64,000 nucleotides of DNA, from NCBI GenBank assembly GCA_041743485.1, contig JBGTMR010000184.1, forward strand, positions 4,242-68,241, written 5' to 3'. The position numbers and the translations under genes are program-made. The notes under the pieces were generated by a model that was not told where the DNA came from, did no database searches, and saw only the letters and a program-made list of their open reading frames with translations. Positions 36,916-52,447 of the stretch are shown here, piece by piece (positions within the stretch are counted from its first letter, which is position 1; each line of letters begins with the position of its first letter). Source of the stretch: Pyrinomonadaceae bacterium (GTDB taxonomy: Bacteria > Acidobacteriota > Blastocatellia > Pyrinomonadales > Pyrinomonadaceae).

Positions 36916-37485
36916 ATGCGACGATTCATGTACTCATCAATCCTTTTGCTGCTCTTAACTACGGCTTGTCAGAAAAGCGGTACTCCGCCGCCGACGACAA
37001 CCGACAACCCGCAAACGGCGACCGACTATTACAACAGAGGCGTCGAGCGGCAAGGCAAAGGCGACATCAACGCCGCCCTCGCCGACTACACCAAAGCCAT
37101 CGAACTCGACCCGCGCAATTTCAACGCCTTCAACAATCGCGGCAACATCAAGCAGGACAAAGGCAACCTGAAAGGAGCTATCGTTGACTACACCGCCGCC
37201 GCCGCAATCAACCCGCGCCACGCCCCGGCTCACTTCAATCTCGCGCACGCATACCAGACTAGAAAAGATTACGGGGGAGCCATCTATCAGTACGGCAAGG
37301 CTATCGAGGTGAAACCGGACTACGCGATGGCTTACGCCAACCGTGGATTATGCCAGTTGTATGACGGCGAAGACGCCGAAGCACAAAAGGACTTCGACCG
37401 CGCGATTGAGATTGACGGTAATTTGAAAGGTTCGCTTGACGGGTACGTCGCAAAAGTAAAGCAAGAGCGTATGGCGAGACGTTAG
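36916..37485 (+). CDS. TPR-repeat lipoprotein
   Basis: LLLLTTAC lipobox, then repeated ...A(L/I)xDYTKAIELDPxNxxAxxNRG... TPR units. Confidence 0.85.
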   Translation: MRRFMYSSILLLLLTTACQKSGTPPPTTTDNPQTATDYYNRGVERQGKGDINAALADYTKAIELDPRNFNAFNNRGNIKQDKGNLKGAIVDYTAAAAINPRHAPAHFNLAHAYQTRKDYGGAIYQYGKAIEVKPDYAMAYANRGLCQLYDGEDAEAQKDFDRAIEIDGNLKGSLDGYVAKVKQERMARR

Positions 37486-38166: not shown

Positions 38167-40149
38167 ATGAAACACAGACCGTTAGTTGCAAACACATTAG
38201 CGTTTGCGATGGGGGCGGGCTTGCTGATCGCAGGCTTACCGTTCTCGCCGCAGACCACGACACGCGCCGCCGATCACCGCGACTCTTCAGTAAATGACGC
38301 GAGACCAGAGGGCGATTTCCCGGACGTTTTCGCACATGTCAGCCCGGATGACCAGAGCAAACTCGTGTTGAGCGTCAATACCAACCCGTTCGCCAATCCG
38401 AGCGAAATAGGGAGCTACCGCTTCGCGGCGGATTACCTTTATCAGATTAAGATTGACAACAACGGCGATGCCGTGCCTGACTACGTTGTCCAGTTCACCT
38501 TCGATAACAGTTCACAGCAAGTCTACGAGGTGAGAGCCGGACGACCCAACAGCCCGCACAGCCCGCGACTCTCGCCCGTCGTGGATACGCTGCTCAACGT
38601 CGAGCCGATCTGCAAAGCAATCACCTATCACGGCGGCGTGAACGGCGACGACTCGCCTGCGGTTCAGCCGCTGCCGGAAGCCAGCCCGACACCGGCACCC
38701 AGCCCGACACCGACGCCTAATCCCGCCGGTGGTCGCGAACCGGTAGCCGGACGCGACGGCGCGCGATGCTTCGTCGGTATTCGTGACGATCCATTCGTCA
38801 CCGATGTCGGTCAAGCGGTCTTCCGCATCGGTCTCAACCCGAATCCGCGCCGCAACTTCAACAATCACGAGCAGGAAGTGTTTCGTCAAAACACCGATGG
38901 CGGATTTCCTCTCACCTCGTTCGGTCCCACTCGCGGTCGTCCGAACGATCCCGCCGACCTTAACAGTGGACTTGACGGCTTCGGCGGCTTCAATGCGTCG
39001 GTGATGTCTGTCGAAATACCGAAGTCGTGGGTCAGAGGCACGGGTTTCGCCGCGATGGGTCCGGCTGTGCCGGATGCGCTCGACGCCGACGGCGACGGTA
39101 ATACCAACGAGCAGTTGGCGGCGAACACGATTCCCGCCGTTCCCGGCGGCATCGGCGTGTGGGCGACAGCCAGCATCGCCAAGAGCGACAACGGCAACGA
39201 GCGCATCGTGGCGAAACAGGGTGAGAAGGGCGGCATCTCATCGAGTTTTCAACAATTCGAGCGCATGGGGCAGCAGCTATTCAACACCGTCTGGATTTGG
39301 AGACAACCGCCGACCAACACGGTCAGCAATTTCCCCAACCTGACGGATGGTGAAATCAAGAACTTCTACAACCAACTGGCTCCCGAACACGATGTGGAGA
39401 ACTTCGGCTACTTGATTCCCGATGCGTTAGTCGCCGTCCCACAGTTTGGCGAAGACAGCATTCAGGAACGAAGATCGATTCTTACGACAGGCGGCTTCAC
39501 CACACCGGGATTCGGAACAGCTTATCTGCTCGATCAGTTACCGGCTCCTTTCAACGCGATACGAAGCGCGAATCCTGATAAGCGTCTGCTTCAGAGGCTG
39601 CTTCTTCCCGACTATCTGCGCCTCGATTTGGATCGCCAGTCGAGCGTCTCACCCGCATTGCCCGGCGCGCAGGCGTCGAACAACGGCGGCAACGACCTCG
39701 GTCTTCTTCAGTTCGGCTTGCAAAACGGACGCCGGACTGCGGACGACGTAACGGACATCTTGCTCCGTTTCGCTCGTGAATTAGCCGACGTATGTTACAC
39801 ACCCGCCGGAGAAACCGCCGCCGGGCGTCGTTGTCTGCGTGGCGTGTCGTCGGCATTTCCTGCGACGCCTCCGGGCATCATCTCGGATTCGCGCGTCACG
39901 GCGGTTCTGCAAGGCACGGACTTCATCGAGCCGGACATCAACCCTGACCCGCTTGACCCGCTCGGTGCCATCAACAACACGGCGAACAGCGGAAACGACC
40001 GCCTTTTGAATACAGAGTTCCCGTACTTCGCTTCACAACATCCGCAGCCGGGTGAGACTTTTGAAGATACGACCGGCTTCCCACGCGCGGCTGATCCGGC
40101 GATAGTCGTCTTTGGCGGCAGAGCCAATGACACGCAGATTAACCGCTAA
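38167..40149 (+). CDS. DUF4331-family secreted protein
   Basis: Signal peptide, then ADHRDSS...DFPDVFAHVSPDD...YLYQIKIDNNGDAVPDYVVQFTF. This is the same N-terminal pattern as the 578-aa protein at 50711-52447 (ANHREAP...DITDYFSFVSYDD...ILYEIKIDNNQDAIEDVTFQFRF). It fits DUF4331 (PF14224) as I recall it. Confidence 0.8.
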   Translation: MKHRPLVANTLAFAMGAGLLIAGLPFSPQTTTRAADHRDSSVNDARPEGDFPDVFAHVSPDDQSKLVLSVNTNPFANPSEIGSYRFAADYLYQIKIDNNGDAVPDYVVQFTFDNSSQQVYEVRAGRPNSPHSPRLSPVVDTLLNVEPICKAITYHGGVNGDDSPAVQPLPEASPTPAPSPTPTPNPAGGREPVAGRDGARCFVGIRDDPFVTDVGQAVFRIGLNPNPRRNFNNHEQEVFRQNTDGGFPLTSFGPTRGRPNDPADLNSGLDGFGGFNASVMSVEIPKSWVRGTGFAAMGPAVPDALDADGDGNTNEQLAANTIPAVPGGIGVWATASIAKSDNGNERIVAKQGEKGGISSSFQQFERMGQQLFNTVWIWRQPPTNTVSNFPNLTDGEIKNFYNQLAPEHDVENFGYLIPDALVAVPQFGEDSIQERRSILTTGGFTTPGFGTAYLLDQLPAPFNAIRSANPDKRLLQRLLLPDYLRLDLDRQSSVSPALPGAQASNNGGNDLGLLQFGLQNGRRTADDVTDILLRFARELADVCYTPAGETAAGRRCLRGVSSAFPATPPGIISDSRVTAVLQGTDFIEPDINPDPLDPLGAINNTANSGNDRLLNTEFPYFASQHPQPGETFEDTTGFPRAADPAIVVFGGRANDTQINR

Positions 40150-40255
40150 CGACCGCTTCGATATAATTTTAGTACGTCGAAGTTAAACACACGGGAAGGG
40201 CTTCTTTGAGCCGCAGGCTACCGAAGCCCTTCCCCTTAACTAACAAGGGTCGGAA

Positions 40256-41407
40256 ATGATGAAAAAATTTCTGCTCTCGATTCTCTCTCTCGCCTTGTTC
40301 TCCATCCTCGTCGGAGCGGCTTACATCTTCGCTCCGTTTAAGATGCGAGAGTCAATCAACGGCGGGGCAGTTTCAACTCATAACACTAACGAGGCAAGTG
40401 CGGTCGGACACCGTTCGCTGCAAACCCGAATGGTGGTTTTTCACGAATCCCGCATCGCCAACCAGCCGAAGGATGCGGAAGCCTACCGCTCTCTCGCCCT
40501 CGCGTTAATCACTCGCGGCGAAACGACCGGCGAACCCGCCGATTACGACCACGCATGGACTGAACTCGATCACGCCGAGACGATTGAACCGCGCGATCTT
40601 CGCACAGTCCGCGCACGGGCGAAGCTGTTGCAGTCGCGGCATCGTTTCGGGAACGCCCGATTCGTCGCCGAACAAGGATTGAAAAAAGATGCGGAAGACA
40701 CCGACCTGATCGTAACGGCAGGCAACGCCGCACTTGCGATGGGAGATTTCGACGGAGCCGAAGCCCACTTTCAAAAGCTCGTCACCCTCGCCCCCAAATC
40801 GCAGACGGCGTGGGCGAGTTTCTCCTATCTCGCGGAGATGCGCGGCAACCTCGACGAAGCCGCCGCGATGATGGAAAAAGCTCTGGAAACCGGATATAAG
40901 AAGAACGTCAACTTCGCAACCCGCGCGTGGCTGCACACCATCTTAGGCGAAATCGAAGCGAAGCGCGGCAAACTCGATGTCGCGGCTACCCATTACAAAC
41001 TCGCTCTGAAGAATGTTCCCGATTATCGTCTCGCGTTGGAGTTCACAGCCGACATGGATTTGTGGCAAGGTAATCTCAAATCGGCGGAAGAAGGCTACCG
41101 CAATCTCCTCGCAAAGCAATTCGACCCGAAGATACAGCTTCGTCTCTCAGACCTTCTCGAACGTCAGGGGAACAAGGATGAAGCGGCGCGTTTGCGCGAC
41201 GAAAGTTTGCGCTTTTACGAGCGCGTCGTCGCGGGCGGCAACGAAGGATACTTGCGAGATTTGGCGACCCTCGACCTCGCCGCCGGACGATACGGGCGGG
41301 CGGCGGAACTCGCGCGGCGTGATGTCGTTTTGCGCCCGACGATGGAAAGTCGGATGCTTTACGCGAGCGTACTCAAGAAAGCGGAAGCGGCGGGTGTGTC
41401 GCTTTAG
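40256..41407 (+). CDS. membrane-anchored TPR-repeat protein
   Basis: N-terminal TM segment (FLLSILSLALFSILVGAAYIF) followed by a TPR array. Confidence 0.8.
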   Translation: MMKKFLLSILSLALFSILVGAAYIFAPFKMRESINGGAVSTHNTNEASAVGHRSLQTRMVVFHESRIANQPKDAEAYRSLALALITRGETTGEPADYDHAWTELDHAETIEPRDLRTVRARAKLLQSRHRFGNARFVAEQGLKKDAEDTDLIVTAGNAALAMGDFDGAEAHFQKLVTLAPKSQTAWASFSYLAEMRGNLDEAAAMMEKALETGYKKNVNFATRAWLHTILGEIEAKRGKLDVAATHYKLALKNVPDYRLALEFTADMDLWQGNLKSAEEGYRNLLAKQFDPKIQLRLSDLLERQGNKDEAARLRDESLRFYERVVAGGNEGYLRDLATLDLAAGRYGRAAELARRDVVLRPTMESRMLYASVLKKAEAAGVSL

Positions 41408-41511
41408 CCGAACAGGAATAATTAAAGCAACGGCGGTGATTTATAAGTAATCCCGGTTCTCGCACCCTTCGGTTTAACTCGAATTTTCCGAAGTCCGCAT
41501 TAAGGAATTCA

Positions 41512-43914
41512 ATGAAAAGTATTCGCCAAGCTTCAATTCGCCCGCGCATCACGTCGTCGCTAGTCTTGGCGGTATTCCTCATCATTGGCTTCGCAGGCGC
41601 GGCAATCGCGCACCCGCTCGGAAACTTCACCATCAATCATTTCGCCCGTTTAGAGGTTGGCGACGAACGTATAAACATCCGCTTCGTCGTTGACATGGCG
41701 GAAATCCCCACGCTTCAGGAGATGCAGACGATGAACGCGGGGGCGGACGGCTCTCCGTCAAACGCGGAACTCGACGCTTATCTGGCGCGCGTCTCGACAG
41801 GATATGCCGACGGATTGCGGCTCACCGTTGACGGCAAACGCATTCCTCTCCAAATCGCCGCGCAGAGAATCGCCACGTTGACGGGCGACGGCGGGTTGCC
41901 GACCTTGCGCGTCGAATGCGACCTCACCGGCATAATTCCCGCCGGAAGCACAGACGCCGCCCACCGCTTAAAATTTGAAGACACGAATCATCCTACTCGT
42001 ATCGGCTGGCACGAAATCATCGTCGCTCCGACAACCGGAATTTCAATCTTTAACACTTATGCTTTCGCCGACGGCATTTCCGACGAACTCAAAGCCTATC
42101 CGAAAGATTTAATCATCGCCCCGCTCAGCGAACGCATTGCCGAACTGCAATTCACGCAAGGCGACGCACCGGCGGGAGCGAGTCGGCTTCGGACGCGCGG
42201 CGGCATACTCGCCACCGCGTCAAGTATGCGAAACACCGATGCGTCGCGCGCGAATACCGCGACGGGCGCGGCGGAAAACGGCGCGGCAACGAAAGCACGC
42301 GACCGCTTCGCCGAATTGTTGGACGTAAAGGAACTGACCTTGCCCGCCGCCCTGCTCGGCTTGCTCATCGCCGCTTTTCTCGGCGCGGCGCATTCCTTTT
42401 CGCCCGGTCACGGTAAAACCGTCGTCGGTGCTTATCTCGTCGGTTCGCGCGGGACGTGGCGGCACGCCGCTTTCTTGGGCGCGACCGTCACCATCACGCA
42501 CACACTCGGCGTTTTCGCACTCGGCATCGTGACGCTTTTCGCTTCGCAATACATCGTCCCCGAACGCCTCATACCGATTCTCAGTTTCGTCTCCGGGGCG
42601 ATAGTTTTACTTATCGGCTTGAGTCTCTTCATCAAACGTCTGCGCTCGGTGCTGGGTCTTCAATCGGTTTCTCATTTCCACACGCATGACGGACTCACGC
42701 GCGAACATGATGATGTCCACTTGCGTGATAATCACCACGACGATATAGACCCCGCGCTGATGCATTCGCACGGCGGCGGCGTCGCGCACTCGCACCTGCC
42801 GCCGGGAGCCGACGGCGTACCCGTGACGTGGCGCAGTCTGCTCGGATTGGGAATCTCCGGCGGTCTCGTGCCTTGCCCGTCGGCACTCGTCGTGCTGCTC
42901 TCGGCTATCACGCTCAACCGCACGGGCTACGGCTTACTGCTCGTCACCTCGTTCAGTCTCGGACTCGCGGCAACGCTCACAGCCATCGGCTTGGTTTTCG
43001 TTTATGCCGGACAGTGGATGAAGGAGCGCGCGGGCGTCGAGCGTTTCCAGACGTGGGGGCGCGTGCTTCCGACGTTCAGTGCCTTCGTCATCGTATGCGT
43101 CGGGGCAATACTCTGTTACGAAGCGTTGACGCAAGCCGGAATGGTGACATTCTCGGCGGGGCGTCTCGGCGAACTGTTCACGAGTTCGGTATCGTCCGCG
43201 AGTTCGCTTTCGACCGCATCGGTTCTCTTTTTCGGCTTCGGCTTGGGACTCAAACACGCGGTCGAAGCCGACCATCTCGCGGCGGTTTCGGCAATTGTCA
43301 GTGAACGGAAAAGCCTGCTCAGTTCGTCGCTCATCGGCGGACTGTGGGGCATCGGTCACACCATCTCGCTGTTTGCGGTCGGCGTCGTCGTCATTCTGCT
43401 TCACGTCGAAATCAGTGAGCGAACGGCACAGGCACTCGAATTCGGCGTCGCCATCATGCTCGTCGCGCTCGGCGTCAACGCCCTCAACAAAATTGTCAGA
43501 GGCAAATTTCACACGCACCCTCACGAACACGGCGACCGCGCCCACATTCATCCGCACCTCCACGACGGCACGCCCGAACCCGATTCAAACACGCATCACG
43601 GCTACCGCATCGGCAAACGTCCGCTCATTATCGGCATGGTTCACGGATTGGCGGGAAGTGCGGCGTTGATGCTGCTCGTACTTTCAACCATCTCCACGCC
43701 GCTCGTCGGACTCCTCTACATCATCATTTTCGGCATCGGCTCAATCGGCGGAATGATATTGATGAGTACGCTGGTCGGGCTGCCGCTAAGTCTGACGGCG
43801 AACAGTTCCGCCCGCGCGAATCTCGCCATACGCGGGGCGGCGGGATTGTTCAGTTTAGGCTTCGGCTTGTTCATGGTCTATGAAATCGGCTTTGTCGGAG
43901 GTCTCTTTCGCTAG
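41512..43914 (+). CDS. three-module membrane protein: periplasmic HPLGNF domain + RcnA/NicO-like domain with a His-rich loop + second NiCoT-like (HX4DH) domain
   Basis: Signal peptide ...GAAIA|HPLGNFTINHF. The sequence FSPGHGKTVVGAYLVGSRGTWRHA...THTLGV, followed by the loop HFHTHDGLTREHDDVHLRDNHHDDIDPALMHSHGGGVAHSH, is RcnA-like. LGLKHAVEADHLAAV matches the NiCoT HX4DH signature and is followed by a second His loop, HTHPHEHGDRAHIHPHLHD. Confidence 0.8.
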   Translation: MKSIRQASIRPRITSSLVLAVFLIIGFAGAAIAHPLGNFTINHFARLEVGDERINIRFVVDMAEIPTLQEMQTMNAGADGSPSNAELDAYLARVSTGYADGLRLTVDGKRIPLQIAAQRIATLTGDGGLPTLRVECDLTGIIPAGSTDAAHRLKFEDTNHPTRIGWHEIIVAPTTGISIFNTYAFADGISDELKAYPKDLIIAPLSERIAELQFTQGDAPAGASRLRTRGGILATASSMRNTDASRANTATGAAENGAATKARDRFAELLDVKELTLPAALLGLLIAAFLGAAHSFSPGHGKTVVGAYLVGSRGTWRHAAFLGATVTITHTLGVFALGIVTLFASQYIVPERLIPILSFVSGAIVLLIGLSLFIKRLRSVLGLQSVSHFHTHDGLTREHDDVHLRDNHHDDIDPALMHSHGGGVAHSHLPPGADGVPVTWRSLLGLGISGGLVPCPSALVVLLSAITLNRTGYGLLLVTSFSLGLAATLTAIGLVFVYAGQWMKERAGVERFQTWGRVLPTFSAFVIVCVGAILCYEALTQAGMVTFSAGRLGELFTSSVSSASSLSTASVLFFGFGLGLKHAVEADHLAAVSAIVSERKSLLSSSLIGGLWGIGHTISLFAVGVVVILLHVEISERTAQALEFGVAIMLVALGVNALNKIVRGKFHTHPHEHGDRAHIHPHLHDGTPEPDSNTHHGYRIGKRPLIIGMVHGLAGSAALMLLVLSTISTPLVGLLYIIIFGIGSIGGMILMSTLVGLPLSLTANSSARANLAIRGAAGLFSLGFGLFMVYEIGFVGGLFR

Positions 43915-43957: not shown

Positions 43958-44650
43958 ATGAAACGAAGCATTACACTGATTGTCGGCTGTCTTTTGACGG
44001 CATGTCTCATCGGCAGCGTCTGGTTCATGGGAACTGCCCAGGTTGTCAGCACTGCGAAGCGCGGCGCGCAGGACAACTCTCGCGCTCCTGTGCTGCGCGC
44101 CCGTGCAATCTTGCGTGGCGTGCCCGGCTCCGGCATCGCAGGCGTGGTCACTTTCACGCAAAGGAGCGAGGATTCGCCGGAGCCGGGCGTGGATGTCGTG
44201 GCGCGGGTCATCGGTCGGTTGGGAGATTTGCGCCCCGGTCGCCATGGGATGCACATTCATGAGTTTGCGCGGTGCGAACCGCCCAGTTTTGATAGCGCGG
44301 GCGGACACTTTGATCCCGGTATGTTCGGTAATTCAACTCCGGTGGACTTGAATCATCCGTTCCATATGGGCGACATCCCTAATCTCATAGTCAACAGAGT
44401 CCGCAACTTTAGTGTAGGAAAGCTCAAACATCAGACGAGCCGAATCACGCTTTCGGACGGACCCCTCAGTGTGTTTGATACGGACGGCAGCGCGGTTATT
44501 CTTCACTTAAACGAAGACCGTGGTGAGCCCGGCGTTACGGGCGCATCGGGTGGTGCGCGGATCGCCTGCGGCGTTATCGAGCGTGTCACCGGCGAACACA
44601 GTTCCGATGACATGGATGATCTAAGCAATATAGATGATCTAAGCAATTAG
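43958..44650 (+). CDS. sodC: Cu/Zn superoxide dismutase-family lipoprotein
   Basis: Lipobox LLTAC. HGMHIHEF, GGHFDPG, HMGDIPNL and GARIACGVIE are the SodC metal-ligand and disulfide pattern. Confidence 0.85.
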   Translation: MKRSITLIVGCLLTACLIGSVWFMGTAQVVSTAKRGAQDNSRAPVLRARAILRGVPGSGIAGVVTFTQRSEDSPEPGVDVVARVIGRLGDLRPGRHGMHIHEFARCEPPSFDSAGGHFDPGMFGNSTPVDLNHPFHMGDIPNLIVNRVRNFSVGKLKHQTSRITLSDGPLSVFDTDGSAVILHLNEDRGEPGVTGASGGARIACGVIERVTGEHSSDDMDDLSNIDDLSN

Positions 44651-45330: not shown

Positions 45331-45441
45331 GGTAACTAAGAGCTAGGTACACCGTCTCTCAATCGAATCTGAAACGAAGTCGAAGCGCGGGGTGTGTTGT
45401 TGACGGAAAGAAACCGCACCGTTCATTTGAGGAGTAAAACC

Positions 45442-47877
45442 ATGAGTAACTTGGCAAGAATCGTAATCTTTTCGGCTTTGTTCGTTGTTCCCTGTGTTCC
45501 GCGAGTGGTGGCGCAATCGTCGAACCAACCGGGTCAAATCGCAGGGTCGCGGCAGACAATTCCGACGCGCATTCTTTCAGGAGCGATTCTGTCGCAACAG
45601 GATGAGAGCGTCGCGGGTGCGACGTTGATTGTGCGTTCGGCTTCGGGTGAGGAGCGCACCACGACAAACGACAAAGGTGCTTTCCGGCTCACCGTCACGG
45701 GCGATTCGTTCGTGCTTCGCGTCGAAGGTAAAAACATCACCCCGCTTGAAAAGACATTCACCGCAAATACCGTGACGGAAGATTTGCAGTTGAAAATCGA
45801 AATCGTCGTTCCGCCGATTCACGAATCGGTCGTAATCGTCGCCGCGCAGCTTGACCCGGCTATTGAGCGGCGTAACGATGCGCTTTACAAAAACACGTTG
45901 TTCTCCAGAGACGATCAGTTGTTACAAAGCTTAAACGGCGGCATCAACGCCGGGCAGCACGAAGGCGGCGGGAAGTCTCTTGAGGTGCGCCGTTTCGGAT
46001 TCAACTTGGATCACGGCGGCGTCAACGGCGGCTTGAAAATCCTCGTTGACGACGTGCAGCAGAATCAAGGAACACAGGGACACGGGCAAGGTTATCTCGG
46101 TTCGCTAAAGAGCCTGACGCCCGAACTCGTCCAAGACGTTGACATCATAAACGGACCTTTCAGCGCGCAGTACGGCGACTTTTCGAGTCTCGGCGTCGTC
46201 CATATACGCTTGCGTGAATTTTTGCCCGACACCCTGACCGCGCGCGTGCATGGCGGCTCGTTCAACACCTTCCGTTCGTTTCTCGCTTACAGCCCGAAAT
46301 TAAAGAACGCCGATTCATTCATCGCTTATGAAGCGTCGCGCTCGGACGGTCCGTTCATCAGCCCGCTTCGCTACAAGCGCGATAATGTGACGGGCAACTA
46401 CACGCGCAGGTTGAGCGATAAATCCGCGCTCGGTTTCAAGTTCAACGCGGGACGCAACGACTTCTTTTCATCCGGTCAGATACCGCTCGATGAAGTGGCG
46501 GCGGGACGCCTCGACCGTTTCGGTTTCATTGACCCGGAGAACGGCGGGAAGGTGCAATCGGGAACTGCCGGTGTTTATTACCGCACGGAGGATTCAAACG
46601 GAAACATCTTCAAGATTGATGGATACGTCACCCGCTCGCTGTTCGATTTGTGGTCTAACTTTACGTTCTTCCTGAGCGATGAAGAGTTCGGCGACGAAAT
46701 TCAGCAACACGATTCGCGCCTTCAGCAAGGCGTCAACGCGCAGTACATTCGCCCTTACAAACTCTTCGGGCAGCAAGCGGTGTTAATCGCGGGCGGCAAC
46801 CTGCTCGCGCTTCAAGCCAACGTCGGGCTTTATCCTTCCATCGCACGCAATCCGAACAGAGCTTTTATCACGCGCAGCAACCTCGCCGACTGCGGCGGCA
46901 ACGGAAATCCCGGCACGCCCGGACTGCCCGACAATACCGTCTCTTCCTGCTTTCTGCTCACAGACGCCAACGCCGATGTGACGAACGGCGCGGGATATGT
47001 GCAACACGGACTCGACCTTTTCGACGGTCGCCTGCATCTCGAAGGCGGTCTGCGTCTCGATTACTTTCGCTTCACGGTTGCCGACTTAATTCAACCGGAG
47101 TTTTCCGGCACACGCGGCGGGGCGCGCTGGCAACCGAAAGCCACCGTCGCTTACACGCCGTCCACACGCCTTCCGGCAACCTTCTATTTCAACTACGGTC
47201 GCGGCATTGCGAGCCAAGACGCGCGCGGCGTCGTCCGTGACCCATCGGGACCCGTCATCTCCACGACGGACTTTTATCAACTCGGCTCGTCGCACAACAC
47301 AAAGCGGTTCTCGCTTAGTGCCGATTTGTTTTTGATAGATACCTCGAACCAACAGGTCTATATCCCCGATGACGGCAGCATAGAATTTGCCGGAGCGAGT
47401 CGGGCTTACGGCTTTGAAGCGAAATCTTCAATTCACATCACGCGCTTGCTCACTTTGAACGGCGGCATCACGCAAGTCGGCAACTCTTTTTACAAAGGCA
47501 CAAACCCGCGCGTCTATGTTGACAGCGCGCCGCACACAGTCGCCAACGCCGGATTAACGCTTGCCGGTTTTCAGGGTTGGACAAGTTCGCTTCGCTATCG
47601 TCACATCGGCAACTATCGCCTTGACGGTGAGGACGCAAGCATCCGCGCCGCCGGACACGACGTAGTTGATTTCAGCGTCGCCAAACGGCTTCGCCGATGG
47701 GTTGATTTCAATGTTTCGATTGACAATCTTTTCAACAAGCGTTACTTCGAGACGCAGAACTACTTCGAGTCGCGCCTTCGTCCGGGCGACCCTGTAATCT
47801 CGCGCATCCACGCGACGCCCGGCTATCCCTTCGGGGTAACGGCGGGACTCACATTCCGGTTATTCGGTGAGAAATGA
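45442..47877 (+). CDS. TonB-dependent outer-membrane receptor with CarboxypepD_reg-like N-domain
   Basis: Start at ATG 45442 after GAGGAG. Signal peptide. ...VAGATLIVRSASGEERTTTNDKGAFRL is a carboxypeptidase-regulatory-like fold. This is followed by a plug region (VVIVAAQLDP..) and a long beta-barrel-type sequence. Confidence 0.85.
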   Translation: MSNLARIVIFSALFVVPCVPRVVAQSSNQPGQIAGSRQTIPTRILSGAILSQQDESVAGATLIVRSASGEERTTTNDKGAFRLTVTGDSFVLRVEGKNITPLEKTFTANTVTEDLQLKIEIVVPPIHESVVIVAAQLDPAIERRNDALYKNTLFSRDDQLLQSLNGGINAGQHEGGGKSLEVRRFGFNLDHGGVNGGLKILVDDVQQNQGTQGHGQGYLGSLKSLTPELVQDVDIINGPFSAQYGDFSSLGVVHIRLREFLPDTLTARVHGGSFNTFRSFLAYSPKLKNADSFIAYEASRSDGPFISPLRYKRDNVTGNYTRRLSDKSALGFKFNAGRNDFFSSGQIPLDEVAAGRLDRFGFIDPENGGKVQSGTAGVYYRTEDSNGNIFKIDGYVTRSLFDLWSNFTFFLSDEEFGDEIQQHDSRLQQGVNAQYIRPYKLFGQQAVLIAGGNLLALQANVGLYPSIARNPNRAFITRSNLADCGGNGNPGTPGLPDNTVSSCFLLTDANADVTNGAGYVQHGLDLFDGRLHLEGGLRLDYFRFTVADLIQPEFSGTRGGARWQPKATVAYTPSTRLPATFYFNYGRGIASQDARGVVRDPSGPVISTTDFYQLGSSHNTKRFSLSADLFLIDTSNQQVYIPDDGSIEFAGASRAYGFEAKSSIHITRLLTLNGGITQVGNSFYKGTNPRVYVDSAPHTVANAGLTLAGFQGWTSSLRYRHIGNYRLDGEDASIRAAGHDVVDFSVAKRLRRWVDFNVSIDNLFNKRYFETQNYFESRLRPGDPVISRIHATPGYPFGVTAGLTFRLFGEK

Positions 47878-47934: not shown

Positions 47935-49248
47935 TCAGGTGGCGATGGAGATTAGCGTCCGCCGTGCGACATCGGCTTGTAGAACATTAAACGTGGGATT
48001 GGCTTCGAGCGCGCGTTTCAAATACTTCGCGGCGTTGCGACGGTCGCCGATGCCGTGATGAATCATGCCCGCGTGATAGAACAATCCGGCGTCGCGCGTG
48101 CCGAGTCGCAAGGCTTCATCCATGCTCGCTTTCGCTTCCGCGAGTTGACCTTTCTTGAACAGACACCACGCGAGGGCGTCGGACGTGTAGATGTCGGCGC
48201 GCTCCGTTCGTTCGCGGCGCGCGACGGCGAGGGCTTCGTCCAGTTTCGTGTCGCGGTCAGCCCAGAAAAGGGCGAGGCTGCGCGAGTAGGTTCGGCTTTC
48301 GGTTGACCCTGCGCGTTCGATAAATTCGACGAGTTCGTATTGACGCCGCGCTTCTTCGGAGCGTCCGAGCGAGGTGTAAATGTCGCCGAGCGCGATAGCC
48401 GTTTCGGGAAGGGGAACGCGCGCCTGCGCTTGTTTATAAAACTCTATGGCGGAGTCCGTGTCGGCGGCGGCGAGACGCGCGCGCCCTTTCGCGGCTAACG
48501 CCGGGTGATAATTCGGGAAGACGTGGAGCGCGACATCGTATTCGTATTCGGCGGCGGCGAGTTTGCCCGCGTTCATCAATTCGTCGCCGAGATGCACGCG
48601 ACACCACGCGATGCTTTCCGGGTCTTTCGCCGCCGATGCCGCCGCGCGCATCATCTCGATTGCGCCGTCGGTATCACCGTGCAGCGCGCGCAGGTATGAA
48701 GCGCGCGCGTAAGCCGAGGTGTCTTGGCGCAAATCAATCATCGTCTGCGCGGTCTCGAACGCCTGTTCATAACGTCCGAGTTCGACAAGGGCGTCCGTCA
48801 TCGCGCCGTAGTTTTCAGAATCCAGCGGCTGCATCGCACGCGCCTTTTGCGCGACTTCGAGTGCTTCGCCGAATCGGTGATAGGTGAGCAGCAATGCCGC
48901 TTTCAACTTGAGCGCGTCGTAATTGTTTTCGTCTCCGGCGATCTCGAACGAACGTGCGAGTGCCGCTTCAGCCCTTGCGTTGAAGCCGAAGTCTCCGGTC
49001 TCACGCGCCTTCTTCATGTAGGCGGCGGACAGCAGGTTATAACCTTTAGAGTCCGAGCCGTCGCGCCCGACCGCGTTTTGCGCCGCTTGAATTTGCCTGT
49101 CTGCTGTCGTCAAGCGGGTATTAGTCGCGTCCGGTTGCGGGCGAGATGCCACCGCGCGCGGGGCGCGAGTCGTCACGGAGCGAATGCCGAAAACGAAGGC
49201 GATGCCGCCTAGTAGTACGACTAGGAGAATCAGAATTATGTTACGCAT
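47935..49248 (-). CDS. membrane-anchored TPR-repeat protein (437 aa)
   Basis: N-terminal TM segment (IILILLVVLLGGIAFVFGI) plus a TPR array. Paralog of 49301-50602. Confidence 0.85.
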   Translation of the reverse strand: MRNIILILLVVLLGGIAFVFGIRSVTTRAPRAVASRPQPDATNTRLTTADRQIQAAQNAVGRDGSDSKGYNLLSAAYMKKARETGDFGFNARAEAALARSFEIAGDENNYDALKLKAALLLTYHRFGEALEVAQKARAMQPLDSENYGAMTDALVELGRYEQAFETAQTMIDLRQDTSAYARASYLRALHGDTDGAIEMMRAAASAAKDPESIAWCRVHLGDELMNAGKLAAAEYEYDVALHVFPNYHPALAAKGRARLAAADTDSAIEFYKQAQARVPLPETAIALGDIYTSLGRSEEARRQYELVEFIERAGSTESRTYSRSLALFWADRDTKLDEALAVARRERTERADIYTSDALAWCLFKKGQLAEAKASMDEALRLGTRDAGLFYHAGMIHHGIGDRRNAAKYLKRALEANPTFNVLQADVARRTLISIAT

Positions 49249-49300
49249 ATCTTATTTACCGGATTGATATAAGCCGAGAATCTATCGTTGTATTTTTTCT

Positions 49301-50602
49301 TTAACGCCCGGAGCGGCTGCCCGCAGCGGCGGGTGACAGAAGCGCGAGTTTTTCGCGCGCCGATTTCGCGGATGCCGCCAATGGGTTGAGATTGACCGAC
49401 TGCCGCAGATGGAGTTCAGCTTTGATGGGATCGTTCGACTTCAAAAATATCGAACCGGCGTGATACAGAAAGTCTGCGTCGCGCACGCCGACGGCGAGTA
49501 TCTTTTCCATTTGACGACGAGCTTCGGGGTAGTCTCCGTTGACATAGAGTGACCACGCGAATGCGTCGAGGGTATGCACATCTTGACGGCGGGCGACTTC
49601 GATACGCGCGATGCCGAGTGCTTCCACAGGCTTTCGCGCGTGGTCGGCATAATAGAAAATCAGTTCGCGGTTGGCGTTGTCGGCGTCGTCCTTTAGGGCG
49701 CGTGCCTGCTTTTCAAATTCGACATAGAGACGGTTCGATTCTTCAAGCTGTCCGGCTTGTTCGAGGGCGTTTGCCAGTGCGTACAGATTGCGCGGATGAG
49801 GCGCGGTGCGGTTCACCTGACGCCGCAGTTCGACGGCTTCGGCATGTCGTTGTTGAGCGGAGCGGACGCCCGCGAGGTCGGCTAGCGCGTAGTTATATTC
49901 GGGGAGCAGTCCGAGAGCTTGACGCAGTAATTTCTCGGCTGAGTTTGAGTCTCCGGTCGAGAGCGACAAGCGCGCGGCTTGCGTCAGCAATCGCGCGCGC
50001 TCTTCCGTTTCGCCGAACAGCGTCGCCTCATAAGCCGCGTACAGCATCTCCGACGCTCCCGCCGTGTCACCGAAAACTTCCCTCAAACGCGCGATGCGCG
50101 TGAGACCCTGCGCTCCGGCGTGGCGTAGGTCGAGCATCCACTGCACGGCATCTTCGGCTTCCTTGTAGTTGCCGAGTTCAATGGCGGCATCGGCGATAAA
50201 GCCGTACACGGAGATGTCGTCGGGAAGCCGCGTGTTGAGTTTCTTCGCCAACGTCAGAGCTTTGGCGAATTCGTGTTTGCCGAGCAGAATCTGAACCTGA
50301 ATTTTTTGCGCCCCGTTGTTATCGGGAGCTAAACGAAAAGAGTTTTGAAGCGATGCTTCGGCTTGGCGGTAGTAAAACGGGTCGGCGGTTTCACGCGCGC
50401 GGCGTGCGAACGCGGACGCTAATTCATTATGGTATTCGACGTGTTCGGGATTTTTGCGGACGGCATTTTGCGCCGAAGCTATTTTTTGCAGAGTCGGCGA
50501 GAGCGGCTTATCAGCTTGGATTGGGGCAGATGATAATTGCGCGGAGACGCCGAGCGTCAACAGAAGAATGAGTGAAGCCGCCGCTATTGGAATTTTTGTC
50601 AT
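49301..50602 (-). CDS. secreted TPR-repeat protein (paralog of 47935-49248)
   Basis: Signal peptide MTKIPIAAASLILLLTLGVSAQ. Shared blocks with the neighbour include SAQNAVRK/AAQNAVGR and RRARETADPF/KKARETGDF. An alternative GTG start is at 50614. Confidence 0.85.
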   Translation of the reverse strand: MTKIPIAAASLILLLTLGVSAQLSSAPIQADKPLSPTLQKIASAQNAVRKNPEHVEYHNELASAFARRARETADPFYYRQAEASLQNSFRLAPDNNGAQKIQVQILLGKHEFAKALTLAKKLNTRLPDDISVYGFIADAAIELGNYKEAEDAVQWMLDLRHAGAQGLTRIARLREVFGDTAGASEMLYAAYEATLFGETEERARLLTQAARLSLSTGDSNSAEKLLRQALGLLPEYNYALADLAGVRSAQQRHAEAVELRRQVNRTAPHPRNLYALANALEQAGQLEESNRLYVEFEKQARALKDDADNANRELIFYYADHARKPVEALGIARIEVARRQDVHTLDAFAWSLYVNGDYPEARRQMEKILAVGVRDADFLYHAGSIFLKSNDPIKAELHLRQSVNLNPLAASAKSAREKLALLSPAAAGSRSGR

Positions 50603-50710
50603 CGGGTAAGTCACCGGGAAAGTTGAGGTGTGCGGTCATGTTCCTTGCGGGACATGACCGCACGATTGCAAACGTGTGTAGAGAACCGGGCATCGTTGCA
50701 AACTCGATGG

Positions 50711-52447
50711 TTACGGGTTTTCGTCGGGAGGCGTGCAGGGAGCACCGTTGCCCATCGTGCAGCCCGGCTCGCCGGGATCAATGTGTCGGCTGTTGCGCCC
50801 GTCGTGCGCGAACCACACATATGGGAACGTCTCAAATTGAGGCGTGTCGTTGACGTTCACGGCATCGCCGAGAATGTTGTTTGGCGGGATGTTGAACGCG
50901 GGATTAAAGACTCCGGCGGTCAACCGCAAAGTGATGTCGGTGACATCATCGGTTACGCGGCGACCGTTCGGATAGCCCGCCGGATCGCGGCGTGTTCCGA
51001 GACCGACCAACCCCAAGCGACTCCTCGTCGCCACGGGTGTCGGCGGTACGCCGGTGTTAAGTCGCAGCAAGTCCGCGATTGGTCCGACAGGTGTACCGGG
51101 CGCGGCAATCGGTGGTAAATACTGGTAAAGCGGTCGCAAATCATCGCGCGGCGGGTCTGGGACTCTGATCACCGGAACCTGCGCGTTGAGTTGGCGCGCG
51201 AGATAAGGATCGAAGAAGAAACGGCTGAACCGTTCATCGCTTCTCGGCTCGCTGACGCTGAACACATCCTTGAATCCCGTGCCGACGAACAATTCGTTGG
51301 TCAAGGCATTAGCCATGCGCGCCACCTGACGGAATTGACCGTTGGTGTTCTGGTTCTGGAAACGCGATGCTTCTTCAAACGTCAATCCCCGATTGCCGTT
51401 TCCAAAGCTGTTGCCGTTGCCGTTGTTATCGAATGTACGGCGGATTGTTACCTGTTGCCGGGAAGTCGTACCCCATGAACCGATGGTGGCTGCCGGACTG
51501 GTAGCAGGTTCTCTGCGCCCCGTGCGCGTCAGCATCGTAATCGGGACTTCGATGGCGATGACGTTGACGTTGTAACCGGAGACATCCTCTTGGTTGATGT
51601 TGATGTTGTCGTTGTTGTCTATTTCGGCTTGGGCGGCGAGTCCGGCGGCGCGTAGATTGCCCGTGTCGAATGCCGCGCCCAAGTCAATCCAGAAAGGATC
51701 GTCAACTGTACCGGCAAACACACGGACGCCGTTGTCCAGATTGTTAGTAGCCTGCTGAAACAGACCACCCGGAGCTTCATATGTAGGCATAGTGCGTGGA
51801 CCGACGTTCGAGGGAAGGGCAATCAATCGCCTATTGCCCGTCAAGTCGGTTTGATTATTGCCATTACCGTTGCCGTTGTTACCGTTATTGCCATTACCGT
51901 TGCCGTTGTTGCCGTTGCCGCGCAACATCGTCACCGAGTAGGTCTGGCGTAGGAAGATGCCTTCGGAACCGGGTCCGTCGAGGGCGGTGACGGCGGGCGG
52001 AACTATCGGCGTGCCGGGAGGCGCGCCTGCCGGACCGCCCGGAGGCGCATTGACACCCTGTCCCTGTCCGAAGGGCGTGGAGTAGATGCCTTCGGCGATG
52101 CGCTGTGGAATCTGCGGCGGCAAGCGGATTTCGGTTTGGAAGCGAAATTGAAACGTCACGTCTTCGATGGCATCCTGATTGTTGTCAATCTTGATTTCAT
52201 AAAGGATGTTCGGATCGAAGGGAAAATAATTGGGACCGTTGGAAGGCTCCAACAGTGGGTCAACGTTTAGCAGAAACGTCACCTTACTCGGATCGTCGTA
52301 ACTGACAAACGAAAAATAATCGGTGATGTCAGCCAAACGGTCGAGCGCAGTAATCGGTGCTTCGCGGTGATTGGCAGCGAAACTCACGTTCGGCGCGAGC
52401 AGCATCGCCGCTATCGTCAGTGCGACGAAAGCTTTGAATCTTTTCAT
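50711..52447 (-). CDS. DUF4331-family secreted protein with Gly/Asn repeat insert
   Basis: Signal peptide ...APNVSFA|ANHREAPITALDRLADITDYFSF...ILYEIKIDNNQDAIEDVTFQFRF. Internal GNGNNGNGNGNNGNNGNGNGNN tract. Confidence 0.85.
   Translation of the reverse strand: MKRFKAFVALTIAAMLLAPNVSFAANHREAPITALDRLADITDYFSFVSYDDPSKVTFLLNVDPLLEPSNGPNYFPFDPNILYEIKIDNNQDAIEDVTFQFRFQTEIRLPPQIPQRIAEGIYSTPFGQGQGVNAPPGGPAGAPPGTPIVPPAVTALDGPGSEGIFLRQTYSVTMLRGNGNNGNGNGNNGNNGNGNGNNQTDLTGNRRLIALPSNVGPRTMPTYEAPGGLFQQATNNLDNGVRVFAGTVDDPFWIDLGAAFDTGNLRAAGLAAQAEIDNNDNININQEDVSGYNVNVIAIEVPITMLTRTGRREPATSPAATIGSWGTTSRQQVTIRRTFDNNGNGNSFGNGNRGLTFEEASRFQNQNTNGQFRQVARMANALTNELFVGTGFKDVFSVSEPRSDERFSRFFFDPYLARQLNAQVPVIRVPDPPRDDLRPLYQYLPPIAAPGTPVGPIADLLRLNTGVPPTPVATRSRLGLVGLGTRRDPAGYPNGRRVTDDVTDITLRLTAGVFNPAFNIPPNNILGDAVNVNDTPQFETFPYVWFAHDGRNSRHIDPGEPGCTMGNGAPCTPPDENP
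51857..51916. repeat. 2 x 30-bp tandem repeat encoding the (G/N)n tract
   Basis: ATTGCCATTACCGTTGCCGTTGTT occurs at 51857-51880 and 51887-51910, each followed by a 6-nt (A/G)CCGTT. Confidence 0.85.

Follow-up and report, generated by a model that had tools for sequence, protein, structure and literature searches.

DUF4331 (PF14224, IPR025566) is a very large protein family without an assigned function or a solved structure. The window analyzed here, which is the whole stretch of 64,000 nucleotides of Pyrinomonadaceae DNA, encodes two diverged paralogs of this family. The initial annotation of the window pointed out that removal of the predicted signal peptides would expose an X-X-His N terminus on both paralogs, i.e. 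a candidate amino-terminal Cu(II)- and Ni(II)-binding (ATCUN) site, and that the periplasmic domain of a transporter encoded in the same window would start with His1. The locus therefore raises the question whether the mature N terminus of DUF4331 is itself a metal site and, if so, in which system it might act. No paper in the searchable literature discusses the family, and the sole mention of DUF4331 that we found is a single line in a supplementary neighbourhood table (PMC12537917).

Results

The N termini of both DUF4331 proteins and of the transporter had all been read correctly, in sequence and in position (Table 1). DUF4331 no. 1 has a signal peptide composed of an n-region (MKHRP), a hydrophobic core (LVANTLAFAMGAGLLIAGLPF), and a c-region (SPQTTTRA), and its N terminus reads SPQTTTRA/ADHRDSS (the slash marks the predicted cleavage site), with Ala35-Asp36-His37 encoded by GCC GAT CAC. 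The corresponding sequence in DUF4331 no. 2 is APNVSFA/ANHREAP, with Ala25-Asn26-His27 running from nucleotide 52375 to 52367, and that of the transporter is GAAIA/HPLGNFTINH, with His34 at nucleotides 41611-41613. DUF4331 no. 1 is a member of a divergent "AADHRDS" subfamily, whose other members in our set are P0241-P0255. In both paralogs of the window, the Pfam model PF14224 begins at the predicted mature residue, with Asp36 of no. 1 and Asn26 of no. 2 matching its position 2.

Table 1. Position of the DUF4331 genes, their neighbours, and predicted protein features in the window
Feature	Position	Strand	Evidence or remark
DUF4331 paralog no. 1 (660 aa)	38167..40149	+	PF14224, E 9.5e-31; 107.9 bits against a gathering cut-off of 27
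DUF4331 no. 1, predicted Sec signal peptide (residues 1-34)	38167..38268	+	Family-wide -3/-1 signature in register with the His
DUF4331 no. 1, predicted mature start Ala-Asp-His	38269..38277	+	Candidate amino-terminal Cu/Ni site
Membrane-anchored periplasmic TPR protein (383 aa)	40256..41407	+	Middle gene of cassette 1; multiple Pfam TPR families
Permease (800 aa): signal peptide, His1 periplasmic domain, two NicO-like membrane halves with His-rich loops	41512..43914	+	PF03824 (NicO), 61 bits against a gathering threshold of 27.7
Permease, periplasmic domain from predicted His1 (HPLGNFTINH...)	41611..42216	+	Anglerase-like; EF-hand-like loop NAGADGSPSNAELDAYL
Cu/Zn superoxide dismutase-like lipoprotein	43958..44650	+	PF00080, E 1.8e-26
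TonB-dependent receptor, CarboxypepD_reg-like N-terminal domain	45394..47877	+	Occasional neighbour
TPR protein (437 aa, N-terminal membrane anchor)	47935..49248	-	Cassette 2
TPR protein (437 aa, signal peptide)	49301..50614	-	Cassette 2
DUF4331 paralog no. 2 (578 aa)	50711..52447	-	PF14224, E 1.8e-90; 304.7 bits against a cut-off of 27
DUF4331 no. 2, predicted mature start Ala-Asn-His	52367..52375	-	

Homologs of DUF4331 no. 2 are numerous (6475 at E ≤ 0.001 among the 8000 candidates scored). We analyzed the N termini of 296 sequences, which represent 105 clusters at <60% identity, and determined the composition of each position relative to the His. This residue is 100% conserved. Upstream of it, position -1 of the predicted cleavage site (His-3) is Ala, Gly, or Ser in 97% of the N termini (74, 18, and 5%, respectively), position -3 (His-5) is Ala, Val, Leu, Thr, Ser, or Gly in 97%, and position -2 (His-4) is variable, with residues such as Arg, Gln, Phe, or Leu. 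Pro is enriched at -6 to -4 (His-8 to His-6), which marks the boundary between h- and c-regions at the expected distance from the predicted site. The predicted signal peptides have the elements of a Sec signal peptide processed by signal peptidase I (SPase I), i.e. a basic n-region, a hydrophobic h-region, a helix breaker at -6 to -4, and small residues at -3 and -1, and this sample contained neither a lipobox nor a Cys+1 variant. Downstream of the predicted site, the first residue is Ala (58%) or Ser (41%), the second is Asp (60%), Ser (30%), or Asn (7%), and the His is followed by an R-[E/D]-[A/S]-P motif of almost equal conservation. The spacing between signal peptide and His shows zero length variation over the 105 clusters, down to ∼25% sequence identity. 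There are only two real exceptions, P0313, whose sequence two residues before the His does not form an acceptable site, and P0327, in which the His is replaced by a Glu. Because it holds family-wide, this N-terminal pattern is far beyond chance. The placement of His at predicted mature position 3, pointed out for the two paralogs in the initial annotation, is in register with this signature across the family.

From this signature, mature DUF4331 chains are predicted to begin with (A/S)-(D/S/N)-His. Under such cleavage the His would occupy position 3, as required for an ATCUN site, with the two proteins of the window starting with ADH and ANH, and position 2 would carry an amide N-H because Pro is never found there in the 296 N termini. 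A rule-based (-3, -1) predictor combined with a hydrophobic-core search was dropped as a discriminating test. The X-X-His site obeys the rule in 92 of the 105 clusters and is the sole top-ranked site in 37 of them, with ∼4.5 rule-obeying sites per sequence; it is not singled out because the Ala-rich h-regions hold many acceptable positions.

The N-terminal His (H27 in DUF4331 no. 2) is the sole invariant His in the DUF4331 domain, which is ∼500 aa long and has no invariant Cys or Met. Asp, Asn, Arg, and Gln make up the rest of the invariant positions. About 25 positions are invariant or near-invariant, mostly Asp, Asn, and Arg, with conserved blocks DNxGD, DDPF, and NGRRxxDDVxD, and with invariant Asp40 and Asp43 shortly C-terminal of the predicted mature start. 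Since there is one invariant His and no Cys or Met, a site for a borderline metal could be built only with the help of backbone and amine nitrogens, which fits a site that needs a single side chain. The conservation of the first two residues and of R-[E/D]-[A/S]-P exceeds what an ATCUN site needs, which argues against a floppy tail and for a structured site. Conserved positions 1 and 2, Arg4, Glu/Asp5, and Pro7 suggest such a site, packed on the domain, or an additional role. Moreover, a domain of this size with so many invariant Asp, Asn, and Arg implies a function beyond the N-terminal tripeptide. An AF2 model of DUF4331 no. 2 has an overall pLDDT of 85 and a pTM of 0.86. Its pLDDT is below 50 at residues 19-25 and averages 55 at residues 21-30, and order begins at about residue 31 (mean pLDDT 89). 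The low order around His27 would fit a domain that carries a short, flexible arm at its N terminus. When this model was compared with the PDB using Foldseek, nothing was found at E < 0.001 (the best match, an FMO protein, has E 0.39 and TM 0.06), and a PDB sequence search gave no match. Neither search revealed an enzyme family resembling DUF4331 by fold or sequence.

The transporter encoded in the window is a NicO-superfamily member outside the named subfamilies RcnA (NF007454) and TIGR00802. It scores 114.5 bits with NF007454, under the cut-off of 195, and its second half has only a weak match to TIGR00802 (20.8 bits versus a cut-off of 333). Among 114 homologs of its periplasmic domain with a readable N terminus, position -1 is Ala in 95% and position -3 is Ala, Val, or Thr in 87%, and the predicted mature sequence starts with His (100%), Pro (99%), Leu (98%), Gly (100%), and Asn (100%). 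These frequencies support the His1 mature start proposed in the initial annotation. The invariant residues of the domain are H1, P2, G4, N5, A30, E31, and G132. Its AF2 model (pLDDT 93.2) has as best Foldseek match in the PDB the Cu-bound Ang-1 domain 9GCE, which displays a mono-histidine brace (probability 1.00, E 4.2e-5), with TM values of only 0.36/0.43 and an rmsd of 8.4. The idea of a His1 or histidine-brace site is strengthened by this match, which makes Ang-1 a closer analogue than the CopC-type sites that had been suggested. At the sequence level, the domain resembles Ang-1-like domains only marginally in a profile-profile comparison (hhalign probability 7.5%), Pfam DUF6702 and DUF4198 do not match the domain even at E ≤ 1, and a PDB sequence search with the transporter found no match.

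The gene for DUF4331 recurs together with those for periplasmic TPR proteins (one or two) and for a permease bearing a His1 domain. This conserved cassette occurs in no fewer than four phyla (Acidobacteriota, Chloroflexota, Actinomycetota, and Pseudomonadota). We examined 42 DUF4331 loci with at least 5 kb on each flank. A TPR gene adjoins DUF4331 in 32 of these, a NicO or HupE/UreJ-2 permease is present in 23, and no such permease is nearby in the other 19. Orthologs of the TPR protein with the N-terminal membrane anchor of cassette 2 come after DUF4331 in most loci, and plasmids of Streptomyces, Pseudoalteromonas, and Marinobacter carry genes annotated in the same order. All the permeases inspected in DUF4331 cassettes are predicted to mature to His1. 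Gene context thus links DUF4331, a family present in diderm and monoderm phyla alike, to transition-metal permeases.

Two further genes of the window were considered as conserved partners and rejected. The SodC-like gene is present at 0 of 80 related loci and is a neighbour in the window only, and the TonB-dependent receptor was found by tblastn at 1 of 80 loci, in addition to a TonB-dependent receptor in L015. A search of the whole window with Rfam revealed no riboswitch or other RNA and, as there is no NiCo or cobalamin riboswitch, the identity of the metal is not given by this means. A σ54 activator gene is found at positions 35691-36878. A search for σ54 promoters of both DUF4331 genes, prompted by this activator gene, gave fewer matches than chance would predict, and none of them lies upstream of these genes.

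Discussion

Taken as a whole, these findings are best explained by a predicted amino-terminal Cu/Ni site on DUF4331 that serves a TPR-permease metal-capture cassette, a reading to which we assign a probability of roughly 50%. In brief, both DUF4331 proteins would be exported, and SPase I would cut them so that exactly two residues precede the invariant His. Cu(II)/Ni(II) would then be bound by the free amino group, the imidazole of His3, and probably the two backbone amides in between, in either an ATCUN-type site, which is a plausible reading of this N terminus, or a closely related site in which nearby conserved acidic residues complement the amine and His3. This site would sit at the edge of a large domain whose fold has no solved relative. 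DUF4331 would cooperate with one or two TPR proteins in the periplasm and with a permease of the inner membrane (NicO here, HupE/UreJ-2 elsewhere), the periplasmic domain of which would begin with His1 as in the mono-histidine brace of "anglerases." The likely role would be the extracytoplasmic capture of scarce Cu/Ni, possibly Co, followed by hand-over to the permease for uptake; the opposite direction, in which metal is supplied to DUF4331, is also conceivable. The affinity of classical ATCUN sites for Cu(II) is far higher than that of Ang domains, for which ∼70 nM is reported. It is therefore not obvious that Cu(II) would pass downhill to the permease domain, and the transfer would require either Ni(II) as the metal or a reduction step to Cu(I). 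The gene set suggests an undescribed three-gene copper/nickel capture system. More tentatively, DUF4331 could be the first bacterial family to rely for its function on a native Cu(II)/Ni(II) site of the ATCUN type made by signal peptidase, and act as the outer receiver in a widespread relay from DUF4331 to TPR protein to His1 "anglerase" permease, with which soil and marine bacteria from at least four phyla would scavenge traces of Ni/Cu.

Several of the above observations could be read differently. The invariant His might, for instance together with invariant Arg, Asp, and Asn, be part of a site within the folded domain that is catalytic or structural, possibly Ca-dependent, and in which the α-amino group takes no part; the two-residue spacing would then be fixed only because the domain starts there, with the first two residues tuned for signal peptidase. 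This explanation, which we consider rather unlikely, would account for the near-equal conservation of R-[E/D]-[A/S]-P, for first and second residues typical of good SPase I substrates, and for the many invariant acidic and Arg residues elsewhere, including Ca-like loops of the DNxGD type, in a large domain that is well folded in the model. However, junctions between signal peptides and domains normally drift, whereas here there is no length change over so many diverged clusters, and the conserved His is single, with no Cys or Met. In addition, the partner permeases all show the same type of N-terminal His constraint, and the simpler explanation is then that both rely on a common metal chemistry at the N terminus. 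It is less probable still that signal peptides are cut elsewhere or not at all, so that the X-X-His terminus is absent in vivo, and we give this very little credence. Several alternative rule-obeying sites do occur in the Ala-rich signal peptides, but these vary between homologs, and only the site two residues before the His combines conserved -1 and -3 positions with a variable -2.

Alternatively, DUF4331 might be the client of the cassette, i.e. an extracytoplasmic metalloenzyme whose site is loaded by the RcnA-like or HupE permease acting as an exporter with the help of the TPR proteins, in analogy to the metallation of periplasmic cuproenzymes. The NicO half is indeed most similar to the RcnA efflux subfamily, a Cu/Zn superoxide dismutase-like gene adjoins the permease in the window, and a large conserved domain suggests catalysis. 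Nevertheless, we find this scenario improbable, considering that the RcnA score is below its cut-off, that the dismutase gene does not recur at related loci, that no enzyme family resembles DUF4331 in sequence or fold, and that HupE/UreJ and Ang-type permeases are described as importers (PMC12537917). A metal-free role for the new N terminus would also explain the fixed register: its α-ammonium group might be required for folding or activation by way of a salt bridge with one of the invariant Asp residues, as happens when trypsinogen is activated, Asp40 and Asp43 being close by in the sequence, or the N terminus might be a processing or sorting tag. This is highly improbable because neither the invariant His nor the link to metal permeases with a predicted His1 metal site would be explained, and the occurrence of DUF4331 in diderms and monoderms makes a lineage-specific sorting system unlikely.

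The conserved X-X-His N terminus predicted here provides a concrete and cheaply testable hypothesis for DUF4331. Judging from the linkage to TPR proteins and anglerase-type His1 permeases, abundant soil phyla (Acidobacteriota, Chloroflexota, and Actinomycetota) may possess an entire pathway for metal capture outside the cytoplasm, and anglerase-like domains would extend beyond HupE/UreJ-2 permeases. Searches for N-terminal metal sites should also cover His at position 3. Should DUF4331 carry the amino-terminal Cu/Ni site that we favour, the idea of "signal-strapping" would be widened from His1 to His3, and the metalloproteome would gain a fold without a solved relative.

How does this putative site compare with known ones? 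In histidine-brace proteins (LPMOs, CopC, YcnI, and PmoB), the ligands are the amine and the side chain of His1. As predicted for DUF4331, this His is exposed by signal-peptide cleavage and its register is fixed within each family, but it is at position 1 and the folds differ. With ATCUN sites (serum albumin DAHK, histatin-5, hepcidin, and neuromedin C), DUF4331 would share a free N terminus, His3, and a residue other than Pro at position 2, as well as a basic residue at position 4 (Arg in DUF4331, Lys in albumin), and by analogy a preference for Cu(II)/Ni(II) is expected. Unlike these examples, which are eukaryotic peptides or proteins where the tripeptide alone matters, the DUF4331 motif would be generated by a bacterial signal peptidase, is invariant in its family, and is followed by R-[E/D]-[A/S]-P on a large domain.

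Anglerases, in which a β-sandwich periplasmic domain is fused to a transition-metal permease, are the counterpart of the window transporter. The Ang-1 domain (PDB 9GCE), described in 2025, binds Cu2+ and Ni2+ with Kd of about 74 and 220 nM, respectively, and is proposed to feed the permease; DUF4331 and a TPR partner are not discussed in that study (PMC12537917). As in Ang-1 and Ang-2 on HupE/UreJ-2, an invariant His1 is predicted directly after the signal peptide of the window transporter. The best structural match of its periplasmic domain is 9GCE, the Ig-like β-sandwich fold of which it may share, the TM values being low. In contrast to anglerases, which have a PF13795 permease, the window transporter joins this domain to a NicO-type permease (PF03824) that is duplicated, and the HPLGNF motif of the domain and its candidate ligands D28 and E31 are unlike His1/Asn41 of RbAng-1a. 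The DUF4331-linked HupE/UreJ-2 proteins of Pseudoalteromonas and Marinobacter have the anglerase architecture, and the PF13795 fusion is found in the related cassettes L082 and L083. DUF4198, a secreted nickel binder with His1 in 79% of its members (PDB 9GCB), resembles DUF4331 in being a secreted accessory with a processed N terminus encoded near Ni/Co transport genes and Ang-1 permeases (PMC12537917), but its His is at position 1 and it is a small β-sandwich unrelated in sequence and fold. In the Ni/Co uptake protein NikM, which like DUF4198 serves as a precedent for the proposed site, the N-terminal amine and His2 contribute to an ATCUN-like square-planar 4N Ni site, and the N-terminal register of NikM/CbiM is strictly conserved (PMC3945884), which is also true of DUF4331. 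There, however, Met1-His2 and a distal His67 are used inside a membrane protein, rather than X-X-His. N-terminal metal sites made by signal-peptide removal are thus of an already known kind, of which the X-X-His N terminus predicted for DUF4331 would be a new variant.

Results

Both DUF4331 proteins of the window match PF14224 in Pfam, and the 800-aa transporter matches PF03824 (NicO). The initial annotation had proposed that signal-peptide removal would leave His at position 3 of both DUF4331 proteins (an ATCUN-type NH2-X-X-His motif, binding Cu(II)/Ni(II)) and His at position 1 of the periplasmic domain of the transporter, and translation of the window reproduces all three N-terminal sequences exactly (↓ marks predicted cleavage). 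The start of the Pfam DUF4331 model coincides with the predicted mature residue. The nearest homologs in searches with DUF4331 no. 2 and the transporter domain are annotated as Pyrinomonadaceae/Vicinamibacterales MAGs, which makes an acidobacterial source probable.

Features of the window and of three related DUF4331 loci (positions in nt)
Feature	Position	Strand	Details
Sigma-54 activator	35691-36878	+	AAA+ and Fis-type HTH, no obvious receiver domain; upstream of cassette 1
Small TPR protein	36916-37485	+	Upstream of cassette 1
Cassette 1	38167-43914	+	Complete
DUF4331 no. 1	38167-40149	+	MKHRPLVANTLAFAMGAGLLIAGLPFSPQTTTRA↓ADHRDSS; Ala-Asp-His, 38269-38277
TPR protein	40256-41407	+	Cassette 1
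800-aa transporter (NicO permease)	41512-43914	+	...LIIGFAGAAIA↓HPLGNFTINH; His34, 41611-41613
EF-hand-like loop of the transporter	41734-41790	+	Residues about 75-93, NAGADGSPSNAELDAYL
Cu/Zn superoxide-dismutase-like gene	43958-44650	+	Lipobox LLTAC, acidic C-terminal tail
Cassette 2	47935-52447	-	No permease of its own
TPR protein	47935-49248	-	Cassette 2
TPR protein	49301-50614	-	Cassette 2
DUF4331 no. 2	50711-52447	-	MKRFKAFVALTIAAMLLAPNVSFA↓ANHREAP; Ala-Asn-His, 52375-52367
ECF sigma/regulator neighbors, locus L017	13108-15916
ECF sigma/regulator neighbors, locus L082	5642-6858
Sigma/regulator neighbors, locus L081	3279-3860

DUF4331 N-termini were taken from 120 close homologs of no. 2, 150 diverse 50%-identity representatives found with no. 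1, and 80 genome loci of GTDB species representatives. Anchoring on the family His and requiring at least 20 upstream residues gave 296 sequences (105 clusters below 60% identity), in which this His is 100% conserved. The residue at His-3 is A (74%), G (18%) or S (5%), that at His-5 is A/V/L/T/S/G in 97%, His-4 is variable and frequently bulky or charged (R, Q, F, L), and Pro is enriched from His-8 to His-6. Processing by signal peptidase I is recognized by the pattern at -1, -3 and -2 together with a helix breaker at the h/c boundary. At the sequence level, the DUF4331 pattern is a textbook signature of this kind, in a single fixed register. The predicted mature proteins start with [A58/S41]-[D60/S30/N7]-H, followed by R79-[E/D]96-[A/S]88-P78 (percentages). 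Of eight apparent outliers, two proved on inspection to be genuine exceptions, the homologs P0313, which lacks an acceptable cleavage site two residues ahead of the His, and P0327, which has Glu in its place. On predicted cleavage, His at mature position 3 thus holds family-wide. A home-made rule-based predictor did not single out the X-X-His site in DUF4331 signal peptides, because these Ala-rich peptides hold many rule-obeying positions, and the register therefore relies on the position-specific signature. We consider it very probable that cleavage leaves His at +3. Several actinobacterial homologs (e.g. P0311 and P0376, and those of loci L070 and L080) have Arg-Arg in their n-regions, possible Tat signals that would make folded export possible in those lineages; these peptides keep the A↓SSH register.

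In an alignment of 30 DUF4331 sequences (about 25-60% identity, numbered as no. 2), the invariant residues are H27, D40, D43, F77, Y83, F103, G246, Q374, R377, N494, G495, R496, D501, D504, F541 and P542. Only H27 and D43 are strictly invariant in an alignment of 68 sequences. In both alignments, H27 is the sole conserved His and there is no conserved Cys or Met, so a Cu/Ni site could be built only from H27 and backbone or amino-terminal N donors. Amino-terminal metal sites consist of a single side chain plus backbone and terminal-amine nitrogens. The other conserved motifs (IDNxGD, DDPF and NGRRxxDDVxD) look like hard-metal (Ca-type) or polar chemistry. The AlphaFold2 model of DUF4331 no. 2 is confident (pLDDT 85, pTM 0.86); residues 19-25 are disordered, and confidence is intermediate over the NHREA segment and becomes high near residue 31. 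Foldseek found no PDB relative of this model (best E 0.39, TM 0.06), and a PDB sequence search gave no match. Asn/Gly low-complexity inserts at residues about 176-199 and 340-352 (NGNNGNGNGNNGNNGNGNGNN and NNGNGNSFGNGN) coincide with low-confidence loops of the model, and close homologs have Asp/Gly-rich inserts at the matching place. Within the 30-sequence alignment, P0371, P0311, P0320 and P0388 end in a LAQTG-like motif followed by a hydrophobic segment and a basic tail. This resembles the cell-wall sorting signals of sortase substrates (LAxTG-type), and these homologs would then be displayed on the cell surface.

The His1 start proposed for the transporter also stood. Using residues 1-231 as query, we gathered 114 homologs with a readable N-terminus, all of which show the pattern A-x-A↓H-P-L-G-N-F-T (-1 Ala 95%, -3 A/V/T 87%, then H 100, P 99, L 98, G 100 and N 100%; predicted cleavage). 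D28, A30 and E31 are invariant or nearly so, and AlphaFold2 models the mature domain with very high confidence (pLDDT 93, pTM 0.90). The EF-hand-like loop of this domain has the consensus D-x-D-G-D-G-x-x-S-x-A-E in homologs, with weak profile matches to EF-hand Ca-binding proteins. In the membrane part, two NicO-like halves span residues about 285-540 and about 575-800, and each contains a long loop rich in His (HFHTHDGLTREHDDVHLRDNHHDDIDPALMHSHGGGVAHSH and FHTHPHEHGDRAHIHPHLHDGTPEPDSNTHHG).

Searching 80 DUF4331 loci by tblastn with the window proteins revealed a conserved order, DUF4331, one or two TPR proteins, and a NicO permease with a His1 domain, in Acidobacteriota, Chloroflexota, Actinomycetota (Streptomyces, Frankia) and Pseudomonadota. 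In nine further loci, a HupE/UreJ-2 permease replaces NicO, and every inspectable N-terminus of these permeases reads x-x-A↓H. Of the loci, 42 extend at least 5 kb to either side of DUF4331; a TPR gene is adjacent in 32 of these, and 23 have a NicO or HupE/UreJ-2 permease. A Streptomyces anulatus plasmid carries DUF4331, a tetratricopeptide repeat protein and a nickel transporter, and Pseudoalteromonas and Marinobacter plasmids carry (ECF sigma/anti-sigma), DUF4331, (Ig-like), a weak-TPR protein and a HupE/UreJ family protein, with predicted mature permeases TLKA↓HQLST and PTWA↓HKSSD, respectively. Signal peptides or N-terminal anchors mark the TPR proteins of the cassettes as extracytoplasmic. 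Across the window and loci L001-L083, the permease module, NicO (PF03824) or HupE/UreJ-2 (PF13795), varies with lineage, and HupE-linked domains also bear an EF-hand-like loop (DLNQDNVITWQE and DLDLNGDRTVTGNE).

The superoxide-dismutase-like gene directly after the NicO permease and a TonB-dependent receptor, both between the cassettes, were rejected as conserved partners since they are not conserved across loci (the former in 0/80). ECF sigma/anti-sigma pairs (ChrR-cupin or RskA/zf-HC2 type) adjoin DUF4331 in a Phycisphaeraceae MAG and Pseudoalteromonas, and a Streptomyces plasmid has a sigma factor gene about 3 kb upstream of DUF4331; all are possible cassette regulators. A sigma-54 activator precedes DUF4331 in locus L007, as in the window, where a search upstream of the two DUF4331 genes gave no convincing -24/-12 promoter.

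Discussion

Two unrelated Ni/Co-type families alternate as the permease module, with DUF4331, the TPR protein and the His1 domain constant alongside them. By guilt by association, this is good evidence for a role of DUF4331 in handling a transition metal in the extracytoplasmic space. Given this association, the invariance of the X-X-His register and the absence of another soft ligand, we consider it most likely that the DUF4331 N-terminus would form a Cu(II)/Ni(II) site, either ATCUN-type or a related amine-plus-His3 site, with a probability of about 0.5. Conservation at +1, +2 and R-[E/D]-[A/S]-P is stronger than ATCUN chemistry requires, which suggests a structured site, and a conserved domain of this size must have a role beyond holding a tripeptide.

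On this reading, DUF4331 would capture and deliver metal jointly with its TPR partner and with the permease's anglerase-like domain (see below); a full relay of these parts with a true ATCUN site in DUF4331 is more tentative. Classical ATCUN sites bind Cu(II) far tighter than the Kd reported for anglerase (Ang) domains, so Cu(II) simply passed on from DUF4331 to the permease would have to move uphill, and Ni(II) or release by reduction would be the better fit. Transport could serve either uptake or the metallation of DUF4331. The N-terminal metal-site hypothesis is well-founded and readily testable, and concerns a very large family with no assigned function and no solved structural relative. 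No paper on DUF4331, PF14224 or IPR025566 was found in searchable literature text, the sole mention being a line in a supplementary neighbor table (PMC12537917); neither the family-wide His3 terminus nor the DUF4331-TPR-permease cassette is described in the searchable literature.

Other metal systems use comparable termini. In the Ni/Co importer NikM, the N-terminal amine and His2 form an ATCUN-like planar site (PMC3945884), and DUF4198 is a secreted His1 nickel binder encoded near such permeases; both are precedents for the reading of DUF4331. The internal duplication or fusion of the window transporter is not seen in E. coli RcnA. The closest parallel to the His1 domain is offered by the 'anglerases' Ang-1 and Ang-2, beta-sandwich domains that begin with His1 and are attached to HupE/UreJ-2 permeases. 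They were named in the paper that introduced 'signal-strapping', a way of finding proteins in which His1 follows the signal peptide (PMC12537917, Nat Commun 2025). The anglerases bind Cu2+ (Kd about 60-75 nM), and Ang-1 also Ni2+ (220 nM), via a mono-histidine brace, and the authors proposed that they fish metal ions into the permease. The window domain appears to share with them a first strand after His1, a long helix, a beta-sandwich and an EF-hand-like D-x-D-G-x-x-S/T-x-x-E loop. However, its sequence likeness to Ang-1 is marginal (hhalign probability 7.5%), and its permease partner is a duplicated NicO type with loops rich in His, instead of PF13795. We therefore treat it, by analogy, as anglerase-like in mechanism and not as a demonstrated Ang-1 family member: a new variant of the 2025 anglerase principle, on a different permease family.
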